Part shown: positions 1-17,044 of the stretch, in pieces
Layout: every line of letters starts with the position of its first letter
Numbering within the stretch: position 1 is the stretch's first letter
Origin: Escherichia coli
GTDB taxonomy: Bacteria > Pseudomonadota > Gammaproteobacteria > Enterobacterales > Enterobacteriaceae
Assembly: GCF_965641715.1 (NCBI RefSeq)
Contig: NZ_OZ282453.1
Direction: 5' to 3' (one strand)
DNA: 64,000 nt
Position numbers and translations under genes: made by a program
Notes under the pieces: generated by a model
What the model was told of the DNA's origin: nothing
Database searches by the model: none
What the model saw: only the letters and a program-made list of their open reading frames with translations

Positions 1-2288
1 CCACAACACGAAAATTTAAAACCGTTATCACCGATACGGGTGCAAAAAAATTAGCTCAGGCAGCCGCGCCAGATGGTAAGCCTGTCCGCCTGACTCATAT
101 GGCCGTGGGCGACGGTGGCGGCACGTTGCCCACACCAGACAGTAAGCAGACCCGTCTGGTGCATGAGGTGTGGCGACACACTGTTAATCGCGTCATCCTG
201 GACGCAACACATCAGAACCGCATTATTGCGGAGCTGGTTATTCCTCCAGAAACGGGCGGATTCTGGATCCGGGAAATTGGTGTGTTTGATGAGCACGGCG
301 ATTTAATCGCAGTAGGCAATACTGCCGAAAGTTACAAGCCAACCGTTGCCGAAGGGTCAGGACGTGCACAAACATTTCGCACCATTCTGACCGTATCCAG
401 CACTGCCACCGTGGCGCTTACCGTGGATAACACCATGGTAATGGCCACAGTGGATTACGTGGATGACAAACTGAAAGAGCATGAACACTCACGACGTCAC
501 CCGGACGCCTCGCTGACCGCAAAAGGCTTTGTTCAACTTAGCAGCGCCACTAACAGCACGTCTGAAACGCTTGCGGCAACGCCAAAGGCTGTTAAGGCGG
601 CATATGACCTGGCTAATGGCAAATACACCGCACAGGACGCTACCACTGCGCGAAAAGGGATAGTTCAGCTCAGTAGCGCCACCAACAGCACGTCTGAAAC
701 GCAGGCTGCAACGCCGAAAGCAGTAAAGGCCGCGTATGACCTTGCTAACGCAAAATATACCGCTCAGGACGCCACGACGGCACAAAAAGGGATAGTCCAG
801 CTCAGTAGTGCCACCAACAGCACGTCTGAAACACTGGCCGCGACATCGAAAGCGGTTAAGGCGGTAATGGATGAAACGAACAAGAAAGCGCCCTTAAACA
901 GTCCTGCGCTGACCGGAACGCCAACAACGCCAACTGCGCGACAGGGAACGAATAATACCCAAATCGCAAGCACGGCTTTCGTTATGGCTGCGATTGCCGC
1001 CCTTGTAGATTCGTCACCTGACGCACTGAATACGCTGAACGAGTTAGCGGCGGCGCTGGGAAACGACCCGAATTTTGCGACCACCATGACTAACGCGCTT
1101 GCGGGTAAGCAACCGAAAGATGCCACCCTGACGGCGCTGGCCGGGCTTGCTACTGCGGCAGACAGGTTTCCGTATTTTACGGGGAATGATGTCGCCAGCC
1201 TGGCAACCCTGACAAAAGTCGGGCGGGATATTCTTGCGAAATCGACCGTTGCTGCCGTTATCGAATACCTCGGTTTACAGGAAACGGTAAACAGGGCTGG
1301 TAACGCCGTGCAAAAAAATGGCGATACTTTGTCCGGTGGGCTTACTTTTGAAAATGACTCAATCCTTGCCTGGATTCGAAATACTGACTGGGCGAAGATT
1401 GGATTTAAAAATGATGCCGATGGTGACACTGATTCATACATGTGGTTTGAGACAGGCGACAACGGCAATGAATATTTCAAATGGAGAAGCAAACAAAGCA
1501 CCACAACAAAAGACCTGATGAATCTTAAATGGGATGCTTTGTATGTTCTTGTTAAAGCTCTTTTCAGCAGTGAAGTAAAAATATCGACAGTCAATGCACT
1601 GAGGATATTTAATTCATCTTTTGGTGCCATTTTTCGCCGTTCTGAAGAATGCCTGCATATCATCCCTACACGAGAGAATGAGGGGGAAAATGGTAATATA
1701 GGGCCACTACGTCCCTTTACGCTTAATCTCAGAACTGGCCGCATAACTATGGGGCATGGTCTGGATGTTACAGGAGATATAACAACTAACGCCTGGGTGT
1801 ATGCAAACAGGTTTGCTATTAATAGTGGCTCAACCTCATGGATTGATATGCGAAACCAGAATGTCATTTTTGGTAGAAACGCAGTATCAACAAGTTCTGC
1901 GCAGGCTTTGTTAAGACAAGACCATGCAGAACGCAAATTTTTTGTCGGTGGACTTGGTAACTACCAGTTTGGTTTTTACATGATTAATAACTCAAGGACA
2001 GCCAATGGCACCGATGGTCAGGCGTACATGGACAATAACGGTAACTGGCTTTGTGGCTCGCAAGTTATTCCTGGCAACTATGGCAATTTTGATTCCAGAT
2101 ATGTGAGAGATGTTCGCCTGGGTACGCGAGTTGTTCAATTGATGGCGCGTGGTGGTCGTTATGAAAAAGCCGGACACGCAATTACCGGATTAAGAATCAT
2201 TGGTGAAGTAGATGGCGATGATGAAGCCATCTTCAGGCCAATACAAAAATACATCAATGGCACATGGTATAACGTCGCACAGGTGTAA
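1..2288 (+). CDS. Phage tail fibre protein (P2 gpH-like), 5' end outside window
   Basis: Reading frame is open from base 3 to stop at 2286-2288. N-terminal MAVGDGGG and AKGFVQLSSATNSTSETLAATPKAVK motifs are typical of P2 H-type fibres. C-terminus ends in INGTWYN-like motif. Confidence 0.85.
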   Translation, partial: TTRKFKTVITDTGAKKLAQAAAPDGKPVRLTHMAVGDGGGTLPTPDSKQTRLVHEVWRHTVNRVILDATHQNRIIAELVIPPETGGFWIREIGVFDEHGDLIAVGNTAESYKPTVAEGSGRAQTFRTILTVSSTATVALTVDNTMVMATVDYVDDKLKEHEHSRRHPDASLTAKGFVQLSSATNSTSETLAATPKAVKAAYDLANGKYTAQDATTARKGIVQLSSATNSTSETQAATPKAVKAAYDLANAKYTAQDATTAQKGIVQLSSATNSTSETLAATSKAVKAVMDETNKKAPLNSPALTGTPTTPTARQGTNNTQIASTAFVMAAIAALVDSSPDALNTLNELAAALGNDPNFATTMTNALAGKQPKDATLTALAGLATAADRFPYFTGNDVASLATLTKVGRDILAKSTVAAVIEYLGLQETVNRAGNAVQKNGDTLSGGLTFENDSILAWIRNTDWAKIGFKNDADGDTDSYMWFETGDNGNEYFKWRSKQSTTTKDLMNLKWDALYVLVKALFSSEVKISTVNALRIFNSSFGAIFRRSEECLHIIPTRENEGENGNIGPLRPFTLNLRTGRITMGHGLDVTGDITTNAWVYANRFAINSGSTSWIDMRNQNVIFGRNAVSTSSAQALLRQDHAERKFFVGGLGNYQFGFYMINNSRTANGTDGQAYMDNNGNWLCGSQVIPGNYGNFDSRYVRDVRLGTRVVQLMARGGRYEKAGHAITGLRIIGEVDGDDEAIFRPIQKYINGTWYNVAQV
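522..870 (+). repeat. Tandem in-frame coding repeats in tail fibre (two full 132-138 nt units plus a partial third)
   Basis: Peptide (G/I)VQLSSATNSTSET(L/Q)AATPKAVKAAYDLAN(G/A)KYTAQDATTA(R/Q)KG occurs twice in full and a third time partially. Nucleotide copies differ at synonymous positions. Confidence 0.8.
1258..1283. other. gix/pix-like invertase crossover site (left), inside tail fibre gene
   Basis: ttatcgaatacctcggtttacaggaa is an imperfect inverted copy of 4323-4348 and resembles the Mu gix site as recalled. Confidence 0.7.
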
Positions 2289-2819
2289 ATGATGCAGCAT
2301 TTAAAAAATATTAAGTCTGGAAATCCTAAAACGAAAGAACAATATCAGCTAACAAAGAATTTTGATGTTATCTGGTTATGGTCCGAAGACGATAAAAACT
2401 GGTATGAGGAAGTGAAAAACTTTCAGCCAGACACAATAAAGATTGTTTACGATGCAAATAATATTATTGTCGCCATCACTAAAGATGCCTCCACGCTTAA
2501 CCCTGAAGGTTTTAGCGTCGTTGAGGTTCCTGATATTACAGCCAACCGCCGCGCTGATGATTCAGGAAAGTGGATGTTTAAGGATGGAGCTGTAGTTAAA
2601 CGGATTTATACGGCAGACGAACAGCAACAACAAGGCGAATCACAAAAGGCCGCATTGCTTTCCGAAGCTGAATCAGTCATCCAGCCGCTGGAACGCGCTG
2701 TCAGGCTGAATATGGCAACAGACGAGGAACGCACACGACTGGAAGCATGGGAACGCTACAGTGTTCTGGTCAGCCGTGTGGATACGGCAAATCCTGAATG
2801 GCCACAAAAGCCTGAATAA
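2289..2819 (+). CDS. Tail fibre assembly chaperone (gpG/Tfa-like), cassette A
   Basis: 176 aa ORF directly after fibre stop. N-terminus [23 protein letters not shown] and C-terminal region match the Tfa family; paralogous to 2848-3381. Confidence 0.85.
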
Positions 2820-2826
2820 AAATTAA

Positions 2827-2842
2827 GGCCCGCGATCGGGCC
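2827..2842. terminator. Short GC hairpin between convergent tfa genes
   Basis: ggcccg-cgat-cgggcc palindrome; T-rich flank on the minus-strand side only. Confidence 0.4.
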
Positions 2843-2847
2843 TTGTC

Positions 2848-3381
2848 TCATTCAGGTTGTTCGGGAAATGTTACTGGCAGGCTGGAGGTGTCTGTAGATT
2901 CGACTTTCTGCGCATAGAGCATCCACTCGGTTAATTTTTGTTTATTCTCGTCGGAAATGATGCCCAGCCGTAGCTGTGAGTCCCATAGCTGGGTTTTATC
3001 CCTAACGAGCTGTAGCAGGCTTTGCTTTTCATTTTCCGCCTGCTGCCTCTGCTCTTCCTCGGTATAAGTTCGCTTTACCACTACGCCATCTTTGAACATC
3101 CATTTACCAGAAATATCAGCCCGGCGATTTGCTGTAATATCAGGAACCTCAACGACGCTTGCGCCTTCTGGATTAATTGCTGAAACATCCTTTTCAATAC
3201 AAATAATAACGTTGTTGTGGTCATAGACCATTTTCAACGTATCAGGCTGAAAGTTCTTTTGTTCCTCATACCAGTTTTTCCCATCCTCTGTATAAAGCCA
3301 TTTGATGTTAAATTGTTTCGTTAGCTGGTATTGCTCTTTTGTTTTAGGGTTGCCAGCAGTAATATTTTTTAAGTGCATCAT
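2848..3381 (-). CDS. Tail fibre assembly chaperone, alternative cassette B
   Basis: 177 aa minus-strand paralogue of the 2289-2819 product ([22 protein letters not shown]...), convergent with it. Confidence 0.8.
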
Positions 3382-3383
3382 AA

Positions 3384-4322
3384 TTAAATACTCCCCGCGT
3401 TATACCACGTCCCATTAATGCAATACTGAATTGGCCTTGCCTGAGTTGTATCAATTAATTCATCACGGTTTCCGTTAACTGAACCCGTAACGACATAACC
3501 TGACCTGTCAGACCAGCCGGGACCATTCCATGTCTGAACAGATGACAGACCGCCAAGGCGAATACCTGTAATAAACCTTGAGTTACATTCTGCCTGCGTG
3601 TATGCACCAACATCTCCCGCAGAGGGTTTGCGGGTCGTGGTGTAAAACTCTGACCAGTTAGCCTCAAATCCATAACCATCACGCGCTGAACGATAAAAAA
3701 TACCGCCGTTCCTGTAATTCACGCGGAACTGTACAGCAGGGCAGCTCCCCGTATTCATATTGAAGTGGAGGATTAATGTCGATGCACCGCTGATATCTGC
3801 ATCATAAACACCGCTATTCCAGTTCCAGCCAACAGCTTTATCATTTGCAACCCTGCTTCCTGTTTGCCCTAAAGCAAATGCAGGCTGCTGGTTTTTCGTG
3901 TTGTAGTCTCTTCGCCAGCCAGGAGCATAAGCATCACCATGATTAATATAAGTGAATTGAGCGTTAGAGGTGCCGCCTCCGGTGGAAGTGCTTGGTGTTG
4001 TTACACGGATGGTCATGGCACCTTTATTACCCATAACCTCAATAACGCAACCTGCAAGATGAATAGTTCCACAGCCAGTATCGGTAATAATTTTATTATT
4101 GCCGTATGACCATGAACATTTGCACATCCAGTATGGGTGATTGAATGCCCCTTGAGAATCCAGCCATTCAATCAATTGTGCCGTTGTCCAGTTCCCTGCC
4201 CCTGTACTAATAGCACTGTGAAAAGCGCGACATGCACCAATATTTTTTGTGAAGGTATCTTTTCCTGGAATATCTGCGCCGTTCTGGTTTTTCTGTAATG
4301 CGCCAGAAGCCTGATTTACCGT
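3384..4322 (-). CDS. Promoterless alternative tail-fibre C-terminal cassette, expressed only after inversion
   Basis: Minus-strand frame is open from the crossover site at 4323 to a stop at 3384. It begins ...[12 protein letters not shown], matching the [11 protein letters not shown] junction of the plus-strand fibre, and ends [11 protein letters not shown]. It has no start codon of its own upstream. Confidence 0.75.
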
Positions 4323-4348
4323 TTCTTGTAAACCGAGGTTTTAGATAA
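4323..4348. other. gix/pix-like invertase crossover site (right)
   Basis: ttcttgtaaaccgaggttttagataa, inverted partner of 1258-1283, immediately upstream of the invertase gene. Confidence 0.7.
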
Positions 4349-4402
4349 TGGCCGTTTCTGACCTGCATGGCATGATTTACGCTTTTGGACGGGAGATTCA
4401 GC

Positions 4403-4990
4403 GTGCTGATTGGCTATGTAAGGGTATCAACAAATGACCAGAATACAGACCTGCAACGAAACGCTCTTGTTTGTGCAGGATGTGAACAAATATTTGAAGA
4501 TAAATTAAGCGGGACAAAGACAGACCGACCGGGATTAAAACGCGCTTTAAAGCGTCTTCAAAAAGGTGACACGCTGGTTGTCTGGAAACTGGATCGCCTC
4601 GGGCGAAGCATGAAACATCTGATTTCTCTCGTCGGGGAACTACGGGAGCGAGGGATTAATTTTCGCAGTCTGACCGACAGCATAGATACATCTTCTCCAA
4701 TGGGGCGTTTTTTCTTCCACGTGATGGGTGCCCTGGCTGAAATGGAACGTGAATTAATTGTTGAACGTACACTGGCCGGACTGGCAGCAGCGCGCGCACG
4801 GGGGCGCACAGGCGGACGTCGCCCGAAGCTGACAAAAGAACAGCATGAGCAAATAGCAAGGCTGATTAAAAACGGTCACGACAGAAAACAACTGGCAATA
4901 ATTTACGGCATTGGTACATCGACGATTTATCGTTACCACCCCGCAGGAGAATCAAGCGGAGCAATAGAGAAGAGTCAGAAAACAAAATAA
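4403..4990 (+). CDS. Serine DNA invertase (Pin/Gin/Hin/Cin family)
   Basis: N-terminus (V)LIGYVRVSTNDQNTDLQRNAL with catalytic serine context and a C-terminal helix-turn-helix region. Probable GTG start at 4403; the ORF track starts at a TTG at 4385. Confidence 0.9.
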   Translation: MLIGYVRVSTNDQNTDLQRNALVCAGCEQIFEDKLSGTKTDRPGLKRALKRLQKGDTLVVWKLDRLGRSMKHLISLVGELRERGINFRSLTDSIDTSSPMGRFFFHVMGALAEMERELIVERTLAGLAAARARGRTGGRRPKLTKEQHEQIARLIKNGHDRKQLAIIYGIGTSTIYRYHPAGESSGAIEKSQKTK

Positions 4991-5018
4991 CCGCTAATCT
5001 GACCATTAGCGGTTTTTG
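4990..5018. terminator. Bidirectional intrinsic terminator between invertase and tail gene U
   Basis: accgctaat-ctgacc-attagcggt hairpin followed by TTTTT; the reverse strand is also T-rich. Confidence 0.65.
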
Positions 5019-5025
5019 TGTTAAA

Positions 5026-5520
5026 TCAGAACAGCCCTTTAACTGAACTGGCCGCGCTGTTAAGAGATGATGTCACCTTATCTTTGAAGCCGGACAGCAT
5101 ATCGCTGAACGATGAGGATTGCAGGCGCTCCCGCAAATCCTCATCACAGCGTTCAAGGGTCAGTGAAAATTCTATCTTTTTCGCCTTACCGTAGCGATCA
5201 AACTCGGAACGGGTCGTATTCGTTCCGGTCAGGACATACATGCCGTAAATCTGCCCGACACCATCAATCAGAGGCCAGGGGCGTCCTGTATATGCCTGCG
5301 TGGTCAGCAACGAAAGCGACACTTCGCCACCTGTAATTTCAGGATAAAGCACACCAGAAAGAACGATGCGATCATCGCCTGCCCCGATATACTGCCAGCT
5401 TGCTGAACGGTTAACGCGTTCATTTTTCACATGCCGCCAGCTTTTGTTTTGCTGTAACTGCTGATGCGGCAACGTGCGCAGCTCAAAAACAAACATGCCG
5501 TAGATCATCATCATGGCCAT
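5026..5520 (-). CDS. Phage tail protein (P2 gpU-like)
   Basis: 164 aa ORF immediately downstream of the tape-measure gene on the minus strand; size and position match gpU. Exact start among the N-terminal Met codons is uncertain. Confidence 0.7.
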   Translation of the reverse strand: MAMMMIYGMFVFELRTLPHQQLQQNKSWRHVKNERVNRSASWQYIGAGDDRIVLSGVLYPEITGGEVSLSLLTTQAYTGRPWPLIDGVGQIYGMYVLTGTNTTRSEFDRYGKAKKIEFSLTLERCDEDLRERLQSSSFSDMLSGFKDKVTSSLNSAASSVKGLF

Positions 5521-5526
5521 GACTCC

Positions 5527-8334
5527 TCAATCTTTATCGTAAAAACTGCCACGCCCGGCACGGGCGCGCCGTTCCATTTCTGCCCTGACCATTTCACCGA
5601 CCAGTTTCGCCAGTTCGCGGGGATTCTGCGTAACAACGTTATGCAGATGAACATGAATTTCACCACCAAATCCGGAGGCAACAGGCTCCCGGTTACGGGA
5701 AGTTACAGGAACTGATGCCACTGGAGATCGTATGGCCTCCGCCACCGGGCGGGAGCTGGCCGCAACAACAGGGACCAGCGCCGGAGGCAGCGGAGCCGGG
5801 ACCACGGGGGTGATATTAATTGCGGGGGCAGGCTTACTGACCTGCGCAATCTTCCGCTCCTGCCACTCCCCACGAACAGCAAGTGCGCGGGGCAGGTTCT
5901 TAAAGACAATATCGCCGGGGCCAATGCGTTTTTTCGTCTCATCAACCAGCTTACCTGTGTTATCAGCAATTTTGCTGAGTCTGCGTAGCGTCCCGGTATT
6001 GCTGTCTGTGAGCGGTTTATTGTCTTTGGGGTTATCACCTCCGGTGCCATTGCCATTTTCCACAGGCTTCGGCGGATTGATTTTCGCCAGGTCCCCCTGA
6101 AGCAAGGCAACCTTGTCCTGAAGAATGGCCGCACGCTGTGCGTCTTCGATTTTCTTTCTCGCCCTTTCCGCTTCATCCGGAAGCACACCGAGTTTTTCAA
6201 GTATCCACGCCAGCGTATCCAGCAGCATTTTTGCAGGCGTCAGAACAAGCTGTAGCGCGCCACCAAGAACGTTACCGAATATCTCGCCAGCACTGGTACA
6301 TTTATCCAGCGTTTCCTTGCTGGACTCCATCGGTGACAGCAGCGATTTAAACCAGTTAAAGAGCTGAATAATCCCATCGCGCACGACATCAAAAACAGGA
6401 CCAAACCGTTCAAAGGTTTCGCGCAACGGAGCCAGCCGTTCCATAATTCCACTGAACACCCCGGCATAAAACGCCTTGATGGGTTCCCAGTATTTCCAGA
6501 TGAGAACCGCCGCAGCCACAAACGCGGCAACAATCAATCCGACCGGACTGAACAGCGCCCCGATAGCGCCACCCAGCAACGAGATGGAACCTGTTACCAT
6601 TCCCCATAGTGCTGGCAGCACCCTGACGACATTCATTGATCCGGTCAGGAGAGAAAAACCAAGACGTAACGTGGCCAGTTTCCCGTGAAGCACGCCAATA
6701 ACCAGCGACAACGAGCCAATCGTTGCAGTCATTGCCAGCAACGCACCGCCTGCTATCAGTAGCTGGCGCGTCAGTGCCGGATGGGCCTGCGCCAGCGCCG
6801 TCACCCTTGATACCACCCGCGTGAGCCACTGCGTGACAGAACGCAGCGGGCCGTCAATCAGATCTGCAATGCGGATGCGCAACCCTTCCCATGCACTGCC
6901 GAGTGATTTCAGATCGCCGTCAAGGTTGTTGGCCATAACCTTTGCTGTGCGTTCAGCCTCACCGCGCGCGCCTTCAAGTTCTTTTCTCAGTTTAGGTAAG
7001 GAACCGTCACCCGCTGCATCAACGAGCGCCATAAACGATGTGAAAGCCTCTTCTCCGGCAATGTCCTTAAAGAACGATACCCGGTCAACTTCCCCGTATT
7101 TGCGGGTGGCTTTATAAAGGTCGGCCAGCACATCCTCCATCGGGCGCATTTTGCCGTTCGCGTCAGAGACTGCCACACCAAGCTCTTTCAGCGCCTCTGC
7201 TGCCGCCTTTGGCGGTGATGCAAGACGAGCCAGGCTGGCACGCATTGCCGTCCCGGCATCACTTCCCCTGATACCCATATTCGCCAGCACGCCCGCCATC
7301 GCTGCGGCCTGCTCCAGCGATATTCCCAGCTTGCCCGCCACCGGACCTGCATATTTCATGGTTTCGCCCAGTGCGCGAAGGTCAGTGTTGGTACGGGTAA
7401 ACGCTGCGGTGAGCGTGTCACCGACCCGGTCCATCTGGTCAGCAGAAAGGCCGAACTGCGTCAGGATATTTGAGCCAATATCTGCCGTCTCGCCGAGATC
7501 CATACCGCCAGCCGTTGCCATGCTCAGCACTCCGGGGAGCGCAGCCTGAATGGCCTGCGGTGTGAAGCCAGCCATTGCAAGAAATGCCTGCCCACTGGCG
7601 GCATCGCCTGCGGTGAACTGCGTTTCAGAGCCAAGTTTTAACGCCTGCTCACGCAGCGCCTTAAACTGCGGGCTGTTCTGGTCGATTCGCGTCAGCGCCT
7701 GAACGCGGGACATCTCTTTGCCGAACCCGATCGCGGGCTGCAAAAAACGCCCGGCAGCATAGCCGCCCGCCGCTGCCGCACCAATTGCCAGCGCACCACC
7801 TGTTTTCAGTTTTCCCGCGGTTTCCTGCGCGCGCGAATACCGCTCACGCGCCCGCGTTACACGCGCAAGCGCCTGCCGTTCGCGTTCAAGCTGGTTGTTG
7901 TACTGTTCGGTGCGTCTGATGGCCTGCTGGATGGTGTTATCGCTGCCTGTCAGGGAAATGCCGTGGCGTTTCAGCTCTCCGCCAAGTTCCCGCATTTTCT
8001 GAATTTCCCGTGTGCGCGATTCATTCAGGCGTTCAAGCCGGGTGCTTAACTGCTGCATCAGCTTTTGTTGTTTTTCGCTGAGCACTGTACCCGTGCGTTG
8101 TAACTGATTAAGAGCGTTAAGCTGGCGTCGTGCTTTCAATATGCCAGCATCCGCTTTACTGACAGCGTCACGGGCGCGCTCAAATGAACGCGCCTGACGC
8201 TCGAGATTTTTGATCGCCCCCTGCGTTCGCTGGATGGAGTCACCAAACTGCCCCATCAGGCGGCGGGCGTTTTCGGCAGGCCGGGTCAGCCTGTCAACGG
8301 CGCTGAAAGCGACCCGGATATCAAGAGTCTTCAT
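5527..8334 (-). CDS. Tail tape-measure protein (P2 gpT-like)
   Basis: About 935 aa, Ala/Gly-rich with predicted coiled-coil and membrane-like segments, downstream of the E/E' pair. ATG start at 8334 preferred over the GTG at 8370. Confidence 0.85.
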   Translation of the reverse strand: MKTLDIRVAFSAVDRLTRPAENARRLMGQFGDSIQRTQGAIKNLERQARSFERARDAVSKADAGILKARRQLNALNQLQRTGTVLSEKQQKLMQQLSTRLERLNESRTREIQKMRELGGELKRHGISLTGSDNTIQQAIRRTEQYNNQLERERQALARVTRARERYSRAQETAGKLKTGGALAIGAAAAGGYAAGRFLQPAIGFGKEMSRVQALTRIDQNSPQFKALREQALKLGSETQFTAGDAASGQAFLAMAGFTPQAIQAALPGVLSMATAGGMDLGETADIGSNILTQFGLSADQMDRVGDTLTAAFTRTNTDLRALGETMKYAGPVAGKLGISLEQAAAMAGVLANMGIRGSDAGTAMRASLARLASPPKAAAEALKELGVAVSDANGKMRPMEDVLADLYKATRKYGEVDRVSFFKDIAGEEAFTSFMALVDAAGDGSLPKLRKELEGARGEAERTAKVMANNLDGDLKSLGSAWEGLRIRIADLIDGPLRSVTQWLTRVVSRVTALAQAHPALTRQLLIAGGALLAMTATIGSLSLVIGVLHGKLATLRLGFSLLTGSMNVVRVLPALWGMVTGSISLLGGAIGALFSPVGLIVAAFVAAAVLIWKYWEPIKAFYAGVFSGIMERLAPLRETFERFGPVFDVVRDGIIQLFNWFKSLLSPMESSKETLDKCTSAGEIFGNVLGGALQLVLTPAKMLLDTLAWILEKLGVLPDEAERARKKIEDAQRAAILQDKVALLQGDLAKINPPKPVENGNGTGGDNPKDNKPLTDSNTGTLRRLSKIADNTGKLVDETKKRIGPGDIVFKNLPRALAVRGEWQERKIAQVSKPAPAINITPVVPAPLPPALVPVVAASSRPVAEAIRSPVASVPVTSRNREPVASGFGGEIHVHLHNVVTQNPRELAKLVGEMVRAEMERRARAGRGSFYDKD

Positions 8335-8538
8335 TGTCTGTATTCCCGCTGCGAAGTGCCGCCCGCTCACGCCAGCTAACCACTTCGCCGGGAGTCATCA
8401 TGAAGATTTCGGCGGGCGACCAGTTAAAAATGGCGGCAATATCCGCCACAAAGTCTTCTATGTGCTCAAAGCACACAACCGTGATCAGGCTTCCGTCGCC
8501 TGTTCGTTCTTCCCGCCAGAGTCCGCACCGCTCAAAAA
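8321..8538 (-). CDS. E' extension frame of tail chaperone, reached by programmed -1 frameshift from E
   Basis: A 78-codon frame overlaps the 3' end of E and ends at the tape-measure start. It is entered at the minus-strand TTTTTTG heptamer. Confidence 0.6.
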
Positions 8539-8850
8539 ATTTACGGCAACCACACATAACTGAATAAAGTCACGGGATGCCATTTTTTTGATCGTCACTT
8601 CATCCAGTCGCGGTGATGTCACGCGTGACAGCAGCGTAAACATGGATTCCGCTTTCAGATTCAGCACATCAGACAGCGACAAATCTCGCAGAGATCCAGC
8701 CTGCTCAATAGCCCCGGTGATCTCCACATACGTGATTTTTTCGCCGCCTCGCTCAATTGGTTGGGTAAGTTTTACGCCACGCTCACTGGTTTCTTTCACA
8801 GTGTCAGTAACTACCGTGTTTTCGGTATCGATGTTTTTCGTCTCTTTCAT
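8485..8850 (-). CDS. Tail assembly chaperone (P2 gpE-like)
   Basis: Small ORF between the tail tube and tape-measure genes, with an overlapping -1 frame. True start may be internal. Confidence 0.7.
   Translation of the reverse strand: MKETKNIDTENTVVTDTVKETSERGVKLTQPIERGGEKITYVEITGAIEQAGSLRDLSLSDVLNLKAESMFTLLSRVTSPRLDEVTIKKMASRDFIQLCVVAVNFLSGADSGGKNEQATEA
8532..8538 (-). other. Candidate -1 frameshift slippery heptamer TTTTTTG (E/E')
   Basis: Plus strand reads caaaaaa at 8532-8538; on the minus strand the E frame reads gta aat ttt ttg agc. Same arrangement as the P2 E/E' recoding site. Confidence 0.6.
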
Positions 8851-8904
8851 CAGGAAACTCCTTTCAGTCAGAGGCGACGCACTGCGCCGCCTGCATATTA
8901 CTTA

Positions 8905-9417
8905 TCAGCCAAGCCCAAGCGCGGAACGGATACGGTCAGGCACAATGTCCTTGCCGTCCTTCCGGTAGATGAAGTTCAGCAGGTCAATCTCCCACAACGG
9001 GCGATCGTTAACACTCAGCTTGTAGTAGGTGTTTTTAATGGCGTAAGTGTGTGATGTGGCTTCGCCCTGTTTGGCTTCCCCCATATCAATTTCCGTCACA
9101 CGTCCGCGCATTTCGACTTCATACAGGTCGCTTTCTGCATCGGTGTAGTATTCACCCGCAAAACGCAGCAGCGTGCCGTCAATCGTGCCGCCATACTTAA
9201 GGAACAGCTCACGAACTGCGCCCCCCATGACAAAGCTCGCATCAAGCGCGGAGTCGTCCAGACCGAGATCAATACTTACCGCACCCATCATGCCGCCACC
9301 CCGGTAGCTGTCGGTTTTGCGCGTCAGCTTAGGCAGAGTGACGGACGTCACCTTACCCACTTCGTTTTCACCATCCACAAACAGCGTAAAAAAGCGAAGA
9401 TGTTTTGGCACAGCCAT
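8905..9417 (-). CDS. Tail tube protein (P2 gpFII-like)
   Basis: 170 aa, start overlaps the sheath stop (shared A at 9417); position and size match FII. Confidence 0.85.
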   Translation of the reverse strand: MAVPKHLRFFTLFVDGENEVGKVTSVTLPKLTRKTDSYRGGGMMGAVSIDLGLDDSALDASFVMGGAVRELFLKYGGTIDGTLLRFAGEYYTDAESDLYEVEMRGRVTEIDMGEAKQGEATSHTYAIKNTYYKLSVNDRPLWEIDLLNFIYRKDGKDIVPDRIRSALGLG

Positions 9418-10601
9418 CAGGCACCTCCCAGCACCGCAAATGCGGGTTCAAAGTATTCATCAGTAAACGTCTGGTAAAGCTCCATGTCTTCCAGTGGCGG
9501 AACGGGCGTATATTTGTAGCGAATACGCACGCGCCCCTGACGTAAATCCGTGGTGCTGTTATCCACCACGTCATACCAGCACTCCGCGCCAATCAGTTTC
9601 CCGGCAGTAACCAGTGAATCCAGTTTTGCCCTGATGGCACTGATAACATCCTTCACGTTCGCAGGCGTCAGTGGACTGTCGATGGTTTCAAACTGCGCTT
9701 CCGCAATTGAATCAGCCAGCACCTGTGCGGTTCGGGTATACACCTCAAAGATGTAGGCGTTCGTTTCCGGTGTGCGGTTGCCCCAGAAGCGGAACCCGTT
9801 GCGACGAATAATGGTCGTGATTTCTTTGTTGTTGAGGCTGTTGGCATCGCTGTCTTCGGCCTGCAACGACCAGAACACATGCTTCGACATCCCCAGCACA
9901 TTTTTAACCGGAACGTTGGACAGTGATTTGTGCCACCCCTGCTCATGGTCAATGTACGCACGAAGGCCGCACGCATAGGCAGGTGCGGGGAACGTTTCGT
10001 TTTTGCCACTTTTCGGGTTGTAGGCGATGAAGTCCGGCCATAAGAGCATCACCTCACGTTCGTTGAATTTCTGGCGGTAGGTAATCGCCTCAGCCATCGT
10101 GTTACAGCCGTGACATGAGGCATACACAAACGCGCGCAGTTTACCCGCAATCACGCACAGGGATTTTGTTACAGCCTCCGTGTCCAGCTCCGGCGCGGCC
10201 AGAATACGCGGACGGTATCCGATGCTTTCATCCTGCTCTGCAACAAGCAGCGCATACATCCCCGTATAGCTGCCGTCAGATTCAGAACCACCGATAACCA
10301 GTTGATCCTGCGTCTTTCCGTCTTCTTCTTTGTGTTCAGCCACGCGAACGACGATCACCTTTGTGCTCACCTGGTCTGCGATGGCCTTAAGCGCACGATA
10401 AAGCGTCCCCGTTGTCCCGCATTTTCCCAGCACGTCATTGACGCGGGTCAGCAGTGTGGGCTTGTTCAGCGGGAACAGCTTCGCGTCCGCATCATCCGCC
10501 GTTGCCACGATACCGATAACGCTGGAATCAACATCGTTAATCGCTGTTACCAGGTCGGTATTTTCCGTAACACGGGCACCATGAAAACGAGTTTCACTCA
10601 T
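9417..10601 (-). CDS. Contractile tail sheath protein (P2 gpFI-like)
   Basis: 394 aa, MSETRFHGARVTENTDLVTAINDVD...; sheath family by size and position upstream of the tube gene. Confidence 0.85.
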   Translation of the reverse strand: MSETRFHGARVTENTDLVTAINDVDSSVIGIVATADDADAKLFPLNKPTLLTRVNDVLGKCGTTGTLYRALKAIADQVSTKVIVVRVAEHKEEDGKTQDQLVIGGSESDGSYTGMYALLVAEQDESIGYRPRILAAPELDTEAVTKSLCVIAGKLRAFVYASCHGCNTMAEAITYRQKFNEREVMLLWPDFIAYNPKSGKNETFPAPAYACGLRAYIDHEQGWHKSLSNVPVKNVLGMSKHVFWSLQAEDSDANSLNNKEITTIIRRNGFRFWGNRTPETNAYIFEVYTRTAQVLADSIAEAQFETIDSPLTPANVKDVISAIRAKLDSLVTAGKLIGAECWYDVVDNSTTDLRQGRVRIRYKYTPVPPLEDMELYQTFTDEYFEPAFAVLGGA

Positions 10602-10758
10602 AGCTTCAGCCCCTTGTATCCGTTAAATGATTCGGCAACAATCATCACCCACCACGCGCGTAATCTCACCCCTGCGCCGTTCTCCCGCCACGGCGACAAC
10701 AAAAAGCAGTAACCCCCTCCGCACGCACATGCGACCATGCCGCACAGGGAGGGAGCAG

Positions 10759-11868
10759 ATGACCGACACCACCATGCAATTGCTCAGTCAGGGCACAGAC
10801 CCCGTGAAAATGCCGGATTTTGATATTCTCGCGGAGGGTAAAACGCTGTCAGGCGTGGCAGAGCGCCTGATGAGCCTGTCAGTGACCGACAACCGGGGAT
10901 TTGAAGCGGACCAGCTCACCATCACGCTGGATGATGCGGATGGTCAGTTGCAGCTACCGCCACGGGGCGCGCGCCTGACGGTTCTCATTGGCTGGAAAGG
11001 AGAACCGCTGACAGAAAAAGGCACTTACATTGTTGATGAAATCGCTCACGAAGGACCGCCGGACAGGCTGACTGTTTCAGCCAGAAGCGCAGATTTTCGG
11101 GATGAATTTAACGTTAAACGTGAGGTGTCCTGGCATGATGTGACCGTTGAGCGTGTGGTATCCGCCATCGCTCATCGGTACGGTCTGAAACCGCAAATCA
11201 GCGAAATGCTGATGGATATCGAAATCGACCACGCCGACCAGACCGAAGAAAGCGACATGTCCTTTCTTACGCGCATGGCGGAAATGCTGGGCGCAATCAC
11301 CACGGTAAAAAGCGGTAATCTGTTATTCATTATGCCAGGCGGTGGCGTGAACGCACAGGGCCAGCCGTTGCCCTCGTTCGCCATCACGCGCAGCAGTGGC
11401 GATCGCCATCAGTTCCGCATTGCTGACCGCGAAGCGTATACGGGGGTACGCGCTTACTGGCTTGATCTTAATTACGGGAAAAAGAAAAAAGTCAGCGTGA
11501 AACGCCGCAAACCGCCAAAACCCAAAAAGGAGAAAAGCAGCAGCCGTGAAGGTGATTATATGGAAGGTGCGGAAGGCAATGTGTTTGTGTTACGCAAGAC
11601 TTATCAGAACGAGCAGGCAGCAAGACGCGCAGCGGCGGCAAAGTGGCAGCAACTACAACGCGGAGCCGCATCATTCTCCATCACGCTGACACGTGGACGA
11701 GCAGAACTCTACCCCGAAATGCATGGCACGGTAACAGGATTTAAAAGCGAGATTGATAATCAGGACTGGATTATTGCGAAAGCCGAGCACACCATTGATA
11801 ACAGTGGCTTTACCACGCAGCTTGAGCTTGAAGCAAAAATCCCGGAATGGATAGCAGAAACAGAGTGA
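10759..11868 (+). CDS. Phage late gene D protein (P2 gpD-like tail protein)
   Basis: 369 aa from the ATG preceded by GGGAGGGAG. Lysine-rich central linker and overall layout match gpD. Divergent from the sheath gene. Confidence 0.8.
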   Translation: MTDTTMQLLSQGTDPVKMPDFDILAEGKTLSGVAERLMSLSVTDNRGFEADQLTITLDDADGQLQLPPRGARLTVLIGWKGEPLTEKGTYIVDEIAHEGPPDRLTVSARSADFRDEFNVKREVSWHDVTVERVVSAIAHRYGLKPQISEMLMDIEIDHADQTEESDMSFLTRMAEMLGAITTVKSGNLLFIMPGGGVNAQGQPLPSFAITRSSGDRHQFRIADREAYTGVRAYWLDLNYGKKKKVSVKRRKPPKPKKEKSSSREGDYMEGAEGNVFVLRKTYQNEQAARRAAAAKWQQLQRGAASFSITLTRGRAELYPEMHGTVTGFKSEIDNQDWIIAKAEHTIDNSGFTTQLELEAKIPEWIAETE

Positions 11869-11910
11869 GCAACTTAGAATAGCGGCAGCACCACGTTAAG
11901 GGAGGTCGCT

Positions 11911-12171
11911 ATGTTCCGTTGTCCGCTTTGTGGCGCATCTGCCCGTATCCGCACCAGTCGTCCGGAAAATGATTCAAACACCGTGCGGCAAAAGTATTAC
12001 CAGTGTAACAATCTGGAATGCGGCGTATGCTTCTCAACACTGGAAGCTTTCCATAAATTCACATCGAAACACGCCTCCGGCGTTCACTCTTCAGAAGGTA
12101 TCCCGTGGCATGAGCTGCCAGCTTCACACAGGGGAAACAATCAGATGAGTTTGCCTTTATCTCAGAATTAA
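11911..12171 (+). CDS. ogr: Ogr/Delta-family zinc-finger late transcription activator
   Basis: 86 aa, CPLC...X...CNNLEC four-cysteine pattern, N-terminus MFRCPLCG like P2 Ogr, directly after D. Confidence 0.8.
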   Translation: MFRCPLCGASARIRTSRPENDSNTVRQKYYQCNNLECGVCFSTLEAFHKFTSKHASGVHSSEGIPWHELPASHRGNNQMSLPLSQN

Positions 12172-12259: not shown

Positions 12260-12496
12260 ATGTGGAAAGGCCCCGGAAAACATTTCTGTTTAACCGAGGC
12301 CCTAACACTTCTTACCTTCGCAAGTAGAAGGTTAGCGCCTCTCCTCTCAGGAGACAAGCGTTATGACGCAAATTCCGTTAAAAACCCTGTTACTTTGCAT
12401 AACTGCGGTAGCGATAATCTGGATCCTCCACACATCACCGTGCGAGTTACGATTCAGGTTTGCTGGCACGGAAATTGCGGCATTCTTACTATGTAA
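12260..12496 (+). CDS. mok-like overlapping reading frame of the hok locus
   Basis: 78-codon frame starts 103 nt upstream of hok and overlaps it out of frame, as mok does in hok/sok loci; GAAGG precedes the ATG. Confidence 0.4.
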   Translation: MWKGPGKHFCLTEALTLLTFASRRLAPLLSGDKRYDANSVKNPVTLHNCGSDNLDPPHITVRVTIQVCWHGNCGILTM

Positions 12497-12503
12497 TAAG
12501 TAA
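12363..12503 (+). CDS. Hok/Gef-family type I toxin (small membrane peptide)
   Basis: 46 aa MTQIPLKTLLLCITAVAIIWILHTSPCELRFRFAGTEIAAFLLCNK: hydrophobic helix followed by C-E-L-R-F-R and E-I-A-A-F motifs. AGGAG lies 9 nt upstream. Below the 60-aa cutoff of the ORF track. Confidence 0.75.
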   Translation: MTQIPLKTLLLCITAVAIIWILHTSPCELRFRFAGTEIAAFLLCNK

Positions 12504-12590
12504 GATAACCGCGACGGGGGAGTAATCCCCCGTCAATCGGTTGCTAAGGTTGGTCGAAACGGCATCCTATCTCACAGACATGAACAACAA

Positions 12591-12622
12591 ACCCGCAGCG
12601 TAAAAACTGCGGGTTTTCTTTT
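12591..12622 (+). terminator. Intrinsic terminator downstream of hok
   Basis: acccgcag-cgtaaaaa-ctgcgggt hairpin followed by tttctttttg. Confidence 0.6.
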
Positions 12623-12670
12623 TGCTACCCTCACAAATGAGGGCACCATACATAAGCAATAGGCATAACA

Positions 12671-12710
12671 GATCGATGCAATAAATCCGATCGATAAAAA
12701 CGATCGATTT
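12671..12710. promoter_or_regulatory. Cluster of three GATCGAT (Dam-site) repeats upstream of com
   Basis: GATCGAT at 12671, 12690 and 12703, 40-80 bp upstream of the com start. Resembles the three-GATC regulatory region of the Mu mom operon. Confidence 0.4.
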
Positions 12711-12752
12711 GTTATCATATCGGCAGCAGTAACCACACAAGAGGTGCCGCAA

Positions 12753-12950
12753 ATGACGCAAAATGTACGATGCAAAAATTGCAACAAACTACTTGCCCGC
12801 GCCTCATTTCACTACATTGAAATAAAATGTCCGCGCTGCAAAACACTTAACCAGATAACGAGAGCCATCGAGCACCCCACACACATGAGGAGTTATGACC
12901 GTGGGGATCGCAATCCAGCACCAACCAGCACATACGCCAGAACACACTAA
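12753..12950 (+). CDS. com: Com-like zinc-finger translational regulator (Mu Com family)
   Basis: 65 aa, MTQNVRCKNCNKLLARASFHYIEIKCPRCK..., matching the Mu Com CKNCNKLL...IEI(R/K)CPRCK pattern. AAGAGG RBS; 3' end overlaps the methyltransferase start. Confidence 0.7.
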   Translation: MTQNVRCKNCNKLLARASFHYIEIKCPRCKTLNQITRAIEHPTHMRSYDRGDRNPAPTSTYARTH

Positions 12951-13701
12951 GGTTTATCAGACTGACAATGTCACGCTCTGTTGTGGGAATGCACTGGAAA
13001 TATTGCCGCTGATTGAGCCAGAAAGCATTGATGCCTTAATCACTGACCCGCCTTACAGTTCGGGTGCGACACACAAGGCCGGACGCACCAATCAGGGCAG
13101 CCATGCAAAATATCTGAACGGCGAGAACCTTCACCGCTTTGATGGGTTCGCGGGTGAAAACATGGACGCCCGTTCGTGGGCTTACTGGACACAATTATGG
13201 ATGGCACAGGCACACCGCGCAGTCAGGCCAGGCGGTTATGCCATGGTATTTACTGACTGGCGACAACTACCAGCTTTAACCGATGCGTTTCAGGCCAGTG
13301 GCTTTACATGGCGCGGCATCATTGCGTGGAACAAGGGGAGGGGGTCACGAACACCACATACCGGGTATTTCCGGCATCAGTGCGAATACATCGTCTGGGG
13401 CAGCAAAGGCCATTTAGATAAATCGCCTTCGGGGCCGTTCGACGGCTGCATGACGTACCCGGTTATCCCGTCAAAGAAAATGCACCCGACCGGAAAACCA
13501 GAAGAACTAATGGCGGAACTGGTCAGGACTGTGAATAGTGGCGGAACAGTCCTTGATCCTTTTATGGGGTCAGGGACAACGGGTGTGGCTGCACTGAAAG
13601 CAGGGCGAAAATTTATTGGTATAGAAACCAGTGATCATTATTTTGAGGTAGCAGCGCAGCGGCTTCGGGGGACTATTACCACAACCATTTCGGCTACATA
13701 A
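12895..13701 (+). CDS. DNA methyltransferase, beta-class (N6-adenine or N4-cytosine), no restriction partner in window
   Basis: 268 aa with motif order DPPY before FMGSGTT. No restriction endonuclease nearby. Start overlaps the end of com by 56 nt. Confidence 0.85.
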   Translation: MTVGIAIQHQPAHTPEHTKVYQTDNVTLCCGNALEILPLIEPESIDALITDPPYSSGATHKAGRTNQGSHAKYLNGENLHRFDGFAGENMDARSWAYWTQLWMAQAHRAVRPGGYAMVFTDWRQLPALTDAFQASGFTWRGIIAWNKGRGSRTPHTGYFRHQCEYIVWGSKGHLDKSPSGPFDGCMTYPVIPSKKMHPTGKPEELMAELVRTVNSGGTVLDPFMGSGTTGVAALKAGRKFIGIETSDHYFEVAAQRLRGTITTTISAT

Positions 13702-13851: not shown

Positions 13852-14247
<396 letters not shown>

Positions 14248-14416
14248 TCAAAATGTGTGATGGAAATCTCATAATTTTGTCACTTTTTGTCAACGAATCT
14301 TTTTTGTGAGAAATCGCAGGAAGAGGTGTTTTTTTACTTGAGGAATATCTCAAAGCGAGCCATATTTGATGAGATCGATAGTGACTAAATCGCTTCAGTT
14401 TCACAACTGACAGAAT

Positions 14417-14447
14417 AAAAAAACGGCAGCTCAAGGGCTGCCGTTTT
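14417..14447 (-). terminator. bamD intrinsic terminator
   Basis: aacggcagc-tcaagg-gctgccgtt hairpin with T-run on the minus strand. Confidence 0.6.
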
Positions 14448-14463
14448 GTGTTTCAGGTTTCTG

Positions 14464-15201
14464 TTATGTATTGCTGCTGTTTGCGGCGATGATTTTCGCT
14501 ACTTTTTCAGCTTGCGCATTCATCTGCATCTGACGGTATGCATTTTCCATCAGCGGCAGCGCATCACGCGTAGCCTGGGTATCCGGGTAGTCGCGCAACA
14601 TGCCTTCTACGCGGTTAACGACGGCAACCCATGCGCCACGTTCTGTATAGTACTCGGCCACGGAGTATTCATATTTCGCCAGACGATCTTTCAGGAATAC
14701 CAGACGTTTGGTGGCATCGGTGGTGTACTGACTGTTTGGATAGCCGCGCACCAGTTTGGAAAAGTCACTAAACGCAGCTCGTGCATGTTGAGGATCGCGA
14801 TCGCTACGGTCAACGCCAAAGAACCCTTGCAGCGCACTGTCATCCAGCGCCATATTGGTCAGGCCACGCATGTACATGACATAATCGATATTCGGATGGG
14901 TCGGGTTAAGGCGAATAAAACGATCGATGGCAGCCTGCGCTAACGGCAAATCGGCGTTTTTATAGTAGGCGTAGATGAGATCCAGCTGCACCTGCTGCGA
15001 ATACGGACCAAACGGATAGCGATTATCTAACGCTTCCAGTTGCGTTATTGCCTGTCTCCAGTTACCGTCCTGCAGCTTTTGTTGTGCAGTCGCGTAAATT
15101 TCATTTGGCGGATTATCAGGTACTTCTTCCTTTGACCCCGAGCAACCCGCCAAAAACAGGCTTAGTGTGGCGGCTGCCACCAGATATTTCATGCGCGTCA
15201 T
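14464..15201 (-). CDS. bamD: Outer-membrane protein assembly lipoprotein BamD (YfiO)
   Basis: 245 aa, lipoprotein signal [11 protein letters not shown]-like body; synteny. Confidence 0.95.
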
Positions 15202-15335
15202 GACGTTTTGACTTTCCTCAAAATGTAATACGGGAGATTCTCTGTTCCTGCTCCCGGTTAAGACCAGCTACAATAGCACACTATATTAAACGGCAAAGCC
15301 GTAAAACCCCAACGATAAACGAAGAAGCAGTATAT

Positions 15336-16316: not shown

Positions 16317-17044
16317 GTAAGCTGATTGTCCCGCAGTGGCCGCTGCCAAAAGGTGTTGCGGCCTGTAGCTCTACTCGTATCGGCGGCGTGAGCTTGCCCC
16401 CGTATGACTCGCTCAACCTCGGTGCCCATTGTGGCGATAACCCGGATCACGTTGAGGAGAATCGCAAGCGACTTTTTGCTGCGGGCAATTTGCCTTCTAA
16501 ACCGGTCTGGCTTGAGCAGGTACACGGCAAAGATGTGCTTAATCTTACTGGCGAACCTTATGCCTCAAAACGAGCAGATGCCTCTTATAGCAATACGCCC
16601 GGCACGGTTTGCGCAGTGATGACTGCCGACTGCCTCCCTGTGCTGTTTTGCAATCGAGCGGGAACGGAAGTCGCCGCCGCTCATGCTGGCTGGCGTGGAC
16701 TGTGCGCAGGCGTGCTGGAAGAGACAGTTTCCTGTTTTGCTGATAATCCAGAAAATATTCTCGCCTGGTTAGGGCCGGCAATTGGTCCACGCGCGTTCGA
16801 AGTGGGGGCGGAGGTTCGCGAGGCGTTTATGGCAGCAGACGCCAAAGCGAGTACAGCTTTCATTCAGCATGGTGATAAGTATCTGGCGGATATTTATCTG
16901 CTTGCCCGGCAGCGTCTGGCGAGCGTTGGTGTTGAACAAATTTTCGGCGGCGACCGTTGTACATATACGGAAAATGAGACTTTCTTCTCTTATCGTCGCG
17001 ACAAGACCACCGGGCGTATGGCAAGTTTCATTTGGCTGATATAA
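16313..17044 (+). CDS. yfiH: YfiH/PgeF family protein (DUF152)
   Basis: 243 aa, overlaps rluD stop; K-12 synteny. Confidence 0.9.
   Translation: MSKLIVPQWPLPKGVAACSSTRIGGVSLPPYDSLNLGAHCGDNPDHVEENRKRLFAAGNLPSKPVWLEQVHGKDVLNLTGEPYASKRADASYSNTPGTVCAVMTADCLPVLFCNRAGTEVAAAHAGWRGLCAGVLEETVSCFADNPENILAWLGPAIGPRAFEVGAEVREAFMAADAKASTAFIQHGDKYLADIYLLARQRLASVGVEQIFGGDRCTYTENETFFSYRRDKTTGRMASFIWLI

Follow-up and report, generated by a model that had tools for sequence, protein, structure and literature searches.

Introduction

DNA inversion by the Gin, Cin, Pin and Hin recombinases is well established, as are the invertible G segment of phage Mu, the C segments of phages P1 and P7, and the flipping of fibre segments in P2-like prophages of Escherichia coli. 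In Mu, the two orientations of the segment give different host ranges, with Citrobacter, Shigella sonnei and Enterobacter serving as hosts for the G(-) phage. The e14 P region (Pin) and the Salmonella Hin/hix system likewise rely on Fis-dependent serine invertases of this family and on 26-bp sites; Hin flips a promoter, not coding ends, and e14 is a lambdoid remnant. In the Gin, Cin and Hin systems a cis-acting recombinational enhancer that binds Fis is situated within the 5' portion of the invertase gene. Fin of Fels-2 and the P2-like prophage inversions of EPEC E2348/69 are further known systems close to the present one. For P2-like prophages, flipping of fibre segments has been reported in clonal cultures of EPEC (Goldberg et al. 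2014, PMC4272514).

Here we report the analysis of a tail-fibre locus of this kind at the start of a 64-kb stretch of E. coli chromosome, which as a whole is referred to as the window. We conclude, with a probability of roughly 90%, that the element is a system of the Gin/gix type, in which programmed DNA inversion exchanges the receptor-binding tip of the tail fibre in a P88-like prophage. This reading is built on the crossover sites, the in-frame fusion, the intact invertase, the homology to Mu and P7, and the exact inversion in close relatives, each of which was established directly. The 3-kb flip-switch for two alternative fibre tips is genuine, and the host-range switch in the window is probably active. 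The kind of switch is already known and the locus adds nothing to the biology in principle.

Results

Layout of the locus and comparison with Mu, P7 and P88

The layout of the locus (Table 1) is identical to that of the Mu G segment (Gin, gixL/gixR and Fis enhancer; also found in D108), in which Sc, gix and Sv-U are followed by the convergent U'-Sv', a second gix and the invertase. Mu and D108 have 91% nucleotide identity to the window over 1258-4758/4782, and their homology begins exactly at 1258, the first base of the left site. The P7 C segment has 95.5% nucleotide identity to window 1320-4301 and is the closest cassette donor or relative. The proposal of the first-pass annotation that the locus follows the Mu G and P1/P7 C segment layout is therefore borne out, since both the design is shared and the sequence is homologous to both systems.

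There are, however, clear differences from each of those phages. In the window, the fibre's constant part is P2-type and not Mu-type, as is the entire tail, and the invertase is followed on its 3' side by a convergent P2-type tail operon, whereas in Mu it is followed by com-mom. The catalytic domain of the invertase is nearly identical to that of Gin, whereas its DNA-binding domain is diverged. P7 cin has its enhancer in the 5' end of the invertase gene, where one is also predicted in the window, but in P7 the invertase is on the opposite side of the segment, with cixL overlapping its 3' end, the C segment is ~4 kb (P7 record coordinates) compared with ~3.06 kb in the window, and in the alignment Cin is farther than Gin from the window invertase. 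P88 has the same sites and a gene annotated as 'DNA invertase', and differs from the window by ~4-5% in sequence, including Ile at position 730 and one base of the right site.

Table 1. Positions in the window of the components of the invertible tail-fibre locus
Feature	Position	Strand	Details
Sc, constant 5' part of P2 gpH-type tail-fibre gene	1-1283	+	Ends ...VIEYLGLQE
Left 26-bp crossover site (gix/cix type)	1258-1283	+	TTATCGAATACCTCGGTTTACAGGAA; central dinucleotide 1270-1271
Invertible segment	1272-4334	.	3,063 bp between central dinucleotides; 3,065 bp with one base of each
Sv, variable C-terminal 334 aa, Mu S type, expressed in window orientation	1284-2288	+	
tfa, Mu U type, assembly chaperone for Sv	2289-2819	+	Pfam Caudo_TAP, E 1e-36
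GC-rich hairpin between convergent chaperone genes	2825-2844	.	Consensus scan only
tfa', Mu U' type, chaperone of silent cassette	2848-3381	-	Pfam Caudo_TAP, E 4e-37
Sv', alternative C-terminal 312 aa of Mu S' type, silent and without a start codon	3384-4322	-	
Right 26-bp crossover site	4323-4348	-	TTATCTAAAACCTCGGTTTACAAGAA; central dinucleotide 4335-4336
Serine DNA invertase, 195 aa, GTG start	4403-4990	+	Pfam Resolvase (E 1e-50) and HTH_7
Recombinational enhancer (Fis sites), predicted, inside 5' end of invertase gene	4421-4488	.	Identity to Mu gin
Hairpin between invertase gene and convergent gpU gene	4989-5014	.	Consensus scan only; T-runs on both strands

Prophage context

Window positions 1-12000 align to phage P88 (Xuanwuvirus, Peduoviridae) as one collinear piece in the same orientation with 95.5% identity, and Pfam identified the tail proteins Phage_P2_GpU, Phage_tube (FII) and Phage_sheath, both of which support the P2-type tail that had been proposed. 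The gpD gene ends at 11868 and is followed by an ogr-like zinc-finger ORF at 11911-12171, and the prophage adjoins raiA-bamD in the E. coli chromosome. On these matches we assign the element to the P2-like phages of the Peduoviridae, genus Xuanwuvirus, with the window holding the right part of the prophage. All of the visible genes are open, comprising those for the fibre, both chaperones, the invertase, gpU, tape measure, tube, sheath, gpD and ogr.

Crossover sites

The left site has the structure TTATCGAATACC-TC-GGTTTACAGGAA and the right site, read on the minus strand, is TTATCTAAAACC-TC-GGTTTACAAGAA. The two are identical at 23 of 26 positions and have the central TC in common, so that each site is directional and inversion between them is possible. 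A search of the 64-kb window with a degenerate pattern, allowing up to three mismatches, matched these two sites only, and 100 shuffles of the sequence gave no matches. The pair of inverted 26-bp sites around ~3 kb reported in the first-pass annotation is thus unique in the window. Beyond the sites the inverted repeat continues more weakly into coding sequence (65 nt, 77%). A shufflon-like arrangement with extra crossover sites was considered and rejected on the same search, and a scan of the window for the core palindrome WAAACCNNGGTTTW gave no further site beyond the two known ones. An extra site that might explain the inverted tail operon was likewise rejected, there being no inverted repeats around 5026-10601.

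The same crossover-site pattern was found in Mu, P88 and the E. coli relatives, and the left site has an identical copy in E110019, 2022S01, P88 and Mu. The right site has one change specific to the window: in the alignment its position 23 is A, compared with G in Mu, P88, E110019 and 2022S01, so that the half-site reads CAAGAA in the window and CAGGAA elsewhere. The Salmonella hix half-site with A at position 23 would suggest that this change is tolerated.

Fibre gene, its two ends and their chaperones

The constant part of the fibre gene is truncated by the window start. As there is no stop in its reading frame from base 3 onwards, and the start (ATG) annotated in P88 and E110019 is ~7 nt left of the window, it comprises ~430 residues; the figure of 395 residues given previously should be revised, the Met at position 99 being internal. 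Pfam domains of the constant part are a Phage_tail_fib N-terminal domain and Phage_fiber_2 repeats, and there are three 132-bp tandem repeats at 521-916. The window fibre has 96% amino acid identity to that of P88, in an alignment beginning at P88 residue 4.

The variable ends were aligned to known receptor-binding domains, a check that had been suggested for this locus, and matched the Mu S and S' structures. Sv matched PDB 5yvq ('Tail fiber protein S', E 3.6e-136) and has 68.5% amino acid identity to Mu Sv, and Sv' matched PDB 8ju3 ('Tail fiber protein S,S'', E 2.3e-193) with 88.8% identity to Mu Sv'. The chaperones are likewise of Mu type, with tfa having 94.9% amino acid identity to Mu U and a match to PDB 5yvq_B (Mu U, E 1e-107), and tfa' having 98.3% identity to Mu U'. 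Experiments with P88 have established that fibre residues 716-746, which are inside the invertible segment, determine host range (PMC5285337). The Sv of the window has Ile at P88 position 730, a host-range position.

In its present orientation Sv' is preceded by an in-frame stop codon, the TAA at 4341-4343, which is part of the outer half of the right site and closes the frame. When the segment was inverted in silico about the central dinucleotides, ...VIEYLGLQE was joined in frame to TVNQASG..., producing a flipped fibre of 739 aa as translated from the window (~742 aa with the 3 residues lost at the window start) that is directly followed by tfa'. Both states have an in-frame fibre fusion, each with its own Caudo_TAP gene after it. 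These results uphold the earlier description of one variable end with its tfa on the plus strand, a second such pair on the minus strand, and the fusion of the constant part to the alternative C-terminus upon inversion.

Two hairpins may delimit transcription of these genes. The hairpin between the chaperone genes is followed by a T-run on the minus strand and so resembles a terminator that would serve the Sv'-tfa' unit after inversion has brought that unit into register, and that between the invertase and gpU genes looks like a bidirectional terminator.

Invertase and predicted enhancer

The most likely start codon of the invertase is GTG 4403 (MLIGYVRVSTNDQ), which is also the start of Mu gin and the one annotated in P88 and E110019; the start is thereby corrected from the TTG at 4385. 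Residues 1-183 matched the Mu Gin structures PDB 4m6f/3uj3 (E ~1e-100), in keeping with the Pin/Gin-family invertase that had been expected immediately downstream of the segment. Residues 1-113 have one difference from Mu Gin, Met114 is wild-type, and the catalytic serine, Ser9, is present; a mutation of this residue had been named as grounds for doubting the switch. The C-terminal HTH domain is diverged from that of Gin, and nucleotide identity to Mu falls from 99% to ~62% past ~4780. Helix-1 of the DNA-binding domain contains the Q..RL residues, with EQIARLI in the window aligned to EQAGRLL in Gin. The corresponding residues of Hin (Gln151, Arg154 and Leu155) are uniquely conserved in Fis-dependent invertases (PMC3798978).

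Fis sites are located inside the coding region of gin (PMC3378877), and a recombinational enhancer is predicted at the equivalent position in the window. The first ~110 nt of the invertase gene are identical to Mu gin, window 4400-4499 has 99% identity to Mu, and the predicted enhancer corresponds to the interval annotated as enhancer in P7 cin. Fis-core-like G-N13-C 15-mers are present at 4424-4438 and 4473-4487, ~95 bp from the centre of the right site. A loose scan for G-N13-C gave many matches, including several 48-bp pairs, and was therefore non-discriminating, so the enhancer call rests on the identity to Mu gin and the P7 annotation. A simple consensus scan found no sigma-70 consensus promoter upstream of 4403.

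Both orientations occur in close relatives

Comparison with complete E. coli genomes revealed 75 that match the window orientation and 77 that match the in-silico flipped orientation. Two same-strain pairs differ only by an exact inversion, with break points at the centres of the sites (the central dinucleotide). In the E110019 assembly the prophage is present twice, with a 3,069-bp segment that is an exact reverse complement (3069/3069) between identical flanks, and in 2022S01-140 versus 2022S01-140-18 a stretch of 3,051 bp is exactly reverse complemented, again with identical flanks. The expectation that the window captures one of two orientations is thereby backed by its relatives. The E110019 prophage has an insertion site different from that of the window prophage, and its head, lysis and replication modules are complete. 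In some relatives the fibre gene is frameshifted or IS insertions are present.

Discussion

Proposed mechanism

The switch would operate as follows. Dimers of the resident serine invertase would bind both inverted 26-bp sites, and the Fis-bound enhancer in the 5' end of the invertase gene would assemble them into an invertasome. Ser9 would then cut both strands with a 2-bp stagger at the identical central TC dinucleotides, after which half of the tetramer would rotate by 180 degrees and the ends would be rejoined, leaving ~3.06 kb inverted. In the state seen in the window, late transcription of the fibre gene would give Sc (~430 aa) joined to Sv (334 aa) of Mu S type, plus its chaperone. In the flipped state the same promoter and constant part would lead into Sv' (312 aa) of Mu S' type and then tfa'. 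With two fibre states available by inversion, a lysogen population would release phage with two receptor specificities. The source being a single sequence, flipping in the strain of the window is inferred; so are the Fis dependence of the inversion and the actual receptors.

Alternative explanations

The architecture could be intact in a segment that has stopped flipping in this strain, or whose flipping has no effect, which we regard as unlikely. Possible causes are a defective prophage, an unexpressed invertase, or the change in the right site blocking synapsis, and this explanation is consistent with the window containing the right part of the prophage only, with the simple scan finding no consensus promoter upstream of the invertase, with the window-specific G-to-A change, and with the frameshifts and IS insertions of some relatives. 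Against it, all visible prophage genes are open, the invertase is identical at 194/195 residues to that of E110019, whose segment occurs in both orientations, and Mu gin, whose upstream region is the same bar a few changes, is known to be expressed.

There is a very small chance that the tail module has been kept as a tailocin-like weapon or for some other benefit to the host, with inversion diversifying a killing spectrum and not phage host range. Some tailocins do have invertible fibre switches, carotovoricin Er among them (cited within PMC4272514), and the idea was raised by Goldberg et al. for P2-type prophages (PMC4272514). However, P88 and phiSM, which are the nearest relatives, can be induced and form plaques (PMC5285337, PMC6456863), the E110019 relative has its complete set of modules, and the window has no sign of lost phage functions. 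Finally, inverted repeats are formed by the two chaperone genes (361 nt, 70%) as well as by the 3' ends of the fibre, but the notion that such repeats are a by-product of duplicated convergent genes, without site-specific recombination, is effectively refuted by the break points in the E110019 and 2022S01 pairs, which coincide exactly with the central dinucleotide of these 26-bp sites and are not in the longer repeats; in addition, the sites match gix/cix of Mu and P7, with a Gin-like invertase next to them.

Possible wider implications of the proposed inversion in P88-like phages

The homology to Mu has its first base precisely at the crossover site, and the invertase combines, as a chimera, a Gin catalytic domain with a non-Gin DNA-binding domain; taken together, this suggests that whole cassettes may be transferred between unrelated phages at gix itself. 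We consider it possible, if on balance doubtful, that P88-type phages carry a second host range in the silent Mu-S'-type cassette. If flipped virions do infect other hosts, this would help to explain the existence of near-identical Xuanwuviruses across enteric genera. Shuttling between E. coli and Citrobacter by means of the switch was considered because phiSM of C. rodentium is 94.8% identical to the window element, but that phage lends it no support, as the pattern search of phiSM found the left site only and no Sv' is annotated in the gap where it would be expected.

There are also practical consequences. The study of P88 host range deals with the expressed fibre end only and makes no mention of the invertase or the silent cassette (PMC5285337). 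For phage engineering, work on P88-like host range has to date overlooked both. Genome comparisons should expect either orientation, and assemblies can be heterogeneous at the segment. In annotation, the region would be better described as a single fibre gene whose 3' end comes in two versions. The label assigned by PGAP in relatives is 'partial/pseudo tail fiber protein'.

The invertible fibre segment

Our analyses identified the system as the module of the Mu G and P7 C segments carried on a P2-type fibre gene. Its basis is two polar inverted sites with an adjacent intact Gin-like recombinase, an alternative in-frame fibre fusion that has its own chaperone, and near-identical relatives inverted exactly at the site centres. 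An open reading frame running from window base 3 to 2288 encodes the fibre, in which Pfam identified an N-terminal tail-collar domain of P2 type followed by three Phage_fiber_2 repeats, the latter corresponding to three tandem 132-bp copies at 521-916 in the constant part (100, 80 and 61% identical to the first copy). The fibre gene of the E. coli 2022S01 relatives is ~150 nt shorter, which suggests that the copy number of this repeat varies. The constant part (ending ...VIEYLGLQE) had been put at 395 residues by the first-pass annotation, but the Met at position 99 is internal: in Escherichia phage P88 and E. coli E110019 the annotated start falls outside the window, 7 nt to the left of base 1, and the P88 fibre protein aligns from its residue 4, so that this part comprises ~430 aa. 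The fibre's expressed and silent variable ends, Sv and Sv', are each paired with a chaperone gene (tfa and tfa'), and Sv' is preceded by an in-frame TAA (4341-4343) that falls in the right site's outer half. In-silico cutting and rejoining at the central dinucleotides produced an in-frame fibre with tfa' directly after it, confirming that inversion would join the constant part to the alternative C-terminus as first proposed.

Features of the prophage and adjoining chromosome, with window coordinates
Feature	Position	Strand	Remarks
Left 26-bp site	1258-1283	+	TTATCGAATACCTCGGTTTACAGGAA
Sv	1284-2288	+	334 aa; 68.5% protein identity to Mu counterpart
tfa (U)	2289-2819	+	Caudo_TAP; 94.9% protein identity to Mu counterpart
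tfa' (U')	2848-3381	-	Caudo_TAP; 98.3% protein identity to Mu counterpart
Sv'	3384-4322	-	312 aa, without start codon; 88.8% protein identity to Mu counterpart
Right 26-bp site	4323-4348	-	TTATCTAAAACCTCGGTTTACAAGAA
Serine invertase gene	4403-4990	+	Most likely GTG start, MLIGYVRVSTNDQ...
Hairpin flanked on each side by T-runs	4989-5014		Between invertase and convergent gpU
gpD	about 10765-11868	+	
Hok/Gef-type toxin ORF	12363-12503		Name from E110019 annotation
Com-like zinc-finger ORF	12744-12950		Overlaps methyltransferase gene; name from E110019 annotation
DNA methyltransferase gene	12895-13701		Name from E110019 annotation
16S	20189-21730		
tRNA	21816-21888		
23S	22085-24988		
5S	25083-25198		

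Both inverted sites lie exactly where the first-pass annotation had placed them. Of their 26 positions 23 are identical, and each has TC as its central dinucleotide. They were the only matches in the 64-kb window to a degenerate site pattern allowing ≤3 mismatches, which had no match in 100 dinucleotide-preserving shuffles; a core palindrome search likewise returned no site beyond these two. A repeat finder detected the two sites as an inverted repeat of 65 nt (77%), its length reflecting the extension of site similarity into coding sequence, and tfa/tfa' as another of 361 nt (70%). The right site has a single window-specific base (CAAGAA, versus CAGGAA in Mu, P88, E110019 and 2022S01). In Salmonella, A occupies this position of the hix half-site, and by analogy we expect that the change should be tolerated.

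The invertase and its putative enhancer

The gene directly downstream of the segment encodes a Gin-family invertase, as had been predicted, with Resolvase and HTH_7 domains (Pfam) and a match to Mu Gin crystal structures (E about 1e-100). Its start is most likely the GTG at 4403, as in Mu gin and the annotations of relatives. Residues 1-113 differ from Gin at one position, catalytic Ser9, whose mutation would have spoken against the switch, is intact, and at residue 114 the protein carries Met, as in the wild type, instead of the Fis-independent Val (PMC3575834). That the system is a relic, frozen or inconsequential, is improbable, as nothing visible is broken. Nucleotide identity to Mu gin is 96–99% to about 4600 and ~62% after about 4780; given this drop, the C-terminal DNA-binding domain (about 4780-4990) comes from a different invertase lineage, making the protein a chimera with a Gin catalytic domain. 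The DNA-binding domain retains the Q..RL helix-1 residues described as specific to Fis-dependent invertases (PMC3798978).

Fis sites are documented inside the gin coding region (PMC3378877), and we predict a Fis enhancer in the 5' part of the invertase gene. The first ~110 nt are those of Mu gin, with scattered changes in the next 100 nt (99% over 4400-4499), and the annotated P7 cin enhancer (nt 19-86 of the gene) aligns to 4421-4488. Two G-N13-C 15-mers (4424-4438 and 4473-4487) lie ~95 bp from the right-site centre, comparable to the spacing of roughly 100 bp quoted for hixL and the nearer of its Fis sites (PMC3798978); because the motif scan is non-specific, the prediction is based on homology. 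A consensus scan found no invertase promoter.

By analogy with Gin and Hin, the Fis-bound enhancer would bring together invertase dimers sitting on both sites, Ser9 would make 2-bp staggered cuts, and half of the tetramer would rotate by 180 degrees before religation. Such a cycle would leave both orientations in a single lysogen culture, with released phage bearing S-type or S'-type fibres.

Relationships to other phages

Window 1-12000 matches P88 (Xuanwuvirus, Peduoviridae) at 95.5% in a single collinear piece, and Pfam identified P2-type gpU, tape measure, tube and sheath downstream of the switch, which together bear out the P2-type tail originally claimed. P88 has the same crossover sites and an annotated DNA invertase. 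As P88 and the Citrobacter phage phiSM are inducible phages, a domesticated, tailocin-like use is highly unlikely. In phiSM (Shae_phiSM, 1626-4384) an invertase gene is present and the site pattern matches the left crossover site only; with no annotated Sv' in the 780-bp gap where it was expected, the switch may be degenerate there.

The module is common to otherwise unrelated phages: Mu and D108 match at 91% over 1258-4758/4782, beginning exactly at the left site, and the P7 C segment at 95.5% over 1320-4301, in agreement with the proposed Mu G/C-segment design. Among solved structures, Sv matched Mu S (5yvq, E 4e-136), Sv' matched Mu S' (8ju3, E 2e-193), and tfa matched Mu U (5yvq_B, E 1e-107).

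In P88, host range is determined by fibre residues 716-746, and L730I widens it to K-12 strains (PMC5285337). These residues fall within the invertible segment, and the window fibre already has Ile at the position equivalent to 730. The P88 host-range paper (PMC5285337) never mentions the invertase or silent cassette. That omission and the Gin-catalytic-domain chimera are two minor points absent from the literature consulted.

Evidence of inversion in relatives

The phenomenon itself is already known: inversion has been demonstrated in P2-like E. coli prophages, whose fibre segments invert in clonal EPEC cultures (PMC4272514), and the 95.5%-identical classified phage has an annotated invertase. 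Window 1-5100, as found and flipped in silico, was searched against the 5,426 complete genomes of E. coli; the window state occurred in 75 (match covering ≥80%) and the flipped state in 77. Same-strain pairs are more telling than these counts. The E110019 assembly carries two copies of the prophage, one chromosomal and one in a linear record of 25 kb, and the 3,069 bp between central dinucleotides are exact reverse complements (3069/3069) within 3-kb flanks identical at 2999/3000 and 3000/3000 positions. Between 2022S01-140 and 2022S01-140-18, 3,051 bp are exactly reverse complemented with identical flanks. The window thus probably captures one of two orientations, as suggested at first, and the break points in both pairs rule out inverted paralogues without site-specific recombination. 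The E110019 invertase differs from that of the window by one residue, in the C-terminal tail.

The linear record, NZ_CP035755.1 (labelled 'extrachromosomal'), is a near-identical second prophage copy with several frameshifts and the fibre segment in the opposite orientation. Rather than a true replicon, this record is probably what the assembly made of a phage population that was excised or of mixed orientation.

Other features of the prophage and its surroundings

The P2 gene order is H-G-FI-FII-E-T-U-D. Relative to it, the FI-FII-E-T-U block (sheath, tube, gpE, tape measure, gpU; 5026-10601, minus strand) is inverted, lying opposite to the fibre gene and gpD, an arrangement common to P88, phiSM and the E110019 prophage. 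Since its borders have neither gix-like sites nor inverted repeats, the block looks like a fixed genus trait and not a second switch.

The window is E. coli chromosome: right of the prophage lie raiA, bamD, rluD, yfiH, clpB and an rRNA operon (20189-25198), at about 99% identity to many E. coli genomes. From 13852 to 25198 and beyond this is ordinary chromosome, including the known RNAs RyfD, AsrC, rncO, OhsC and GlmY. At the right end of the prophage (12363-13701) are Hok/Gef-type, Com-like and methyltransferase ORFs, and the layout of the latter two recalls Mu com-mom, here beside a Mu-like G/gin module.
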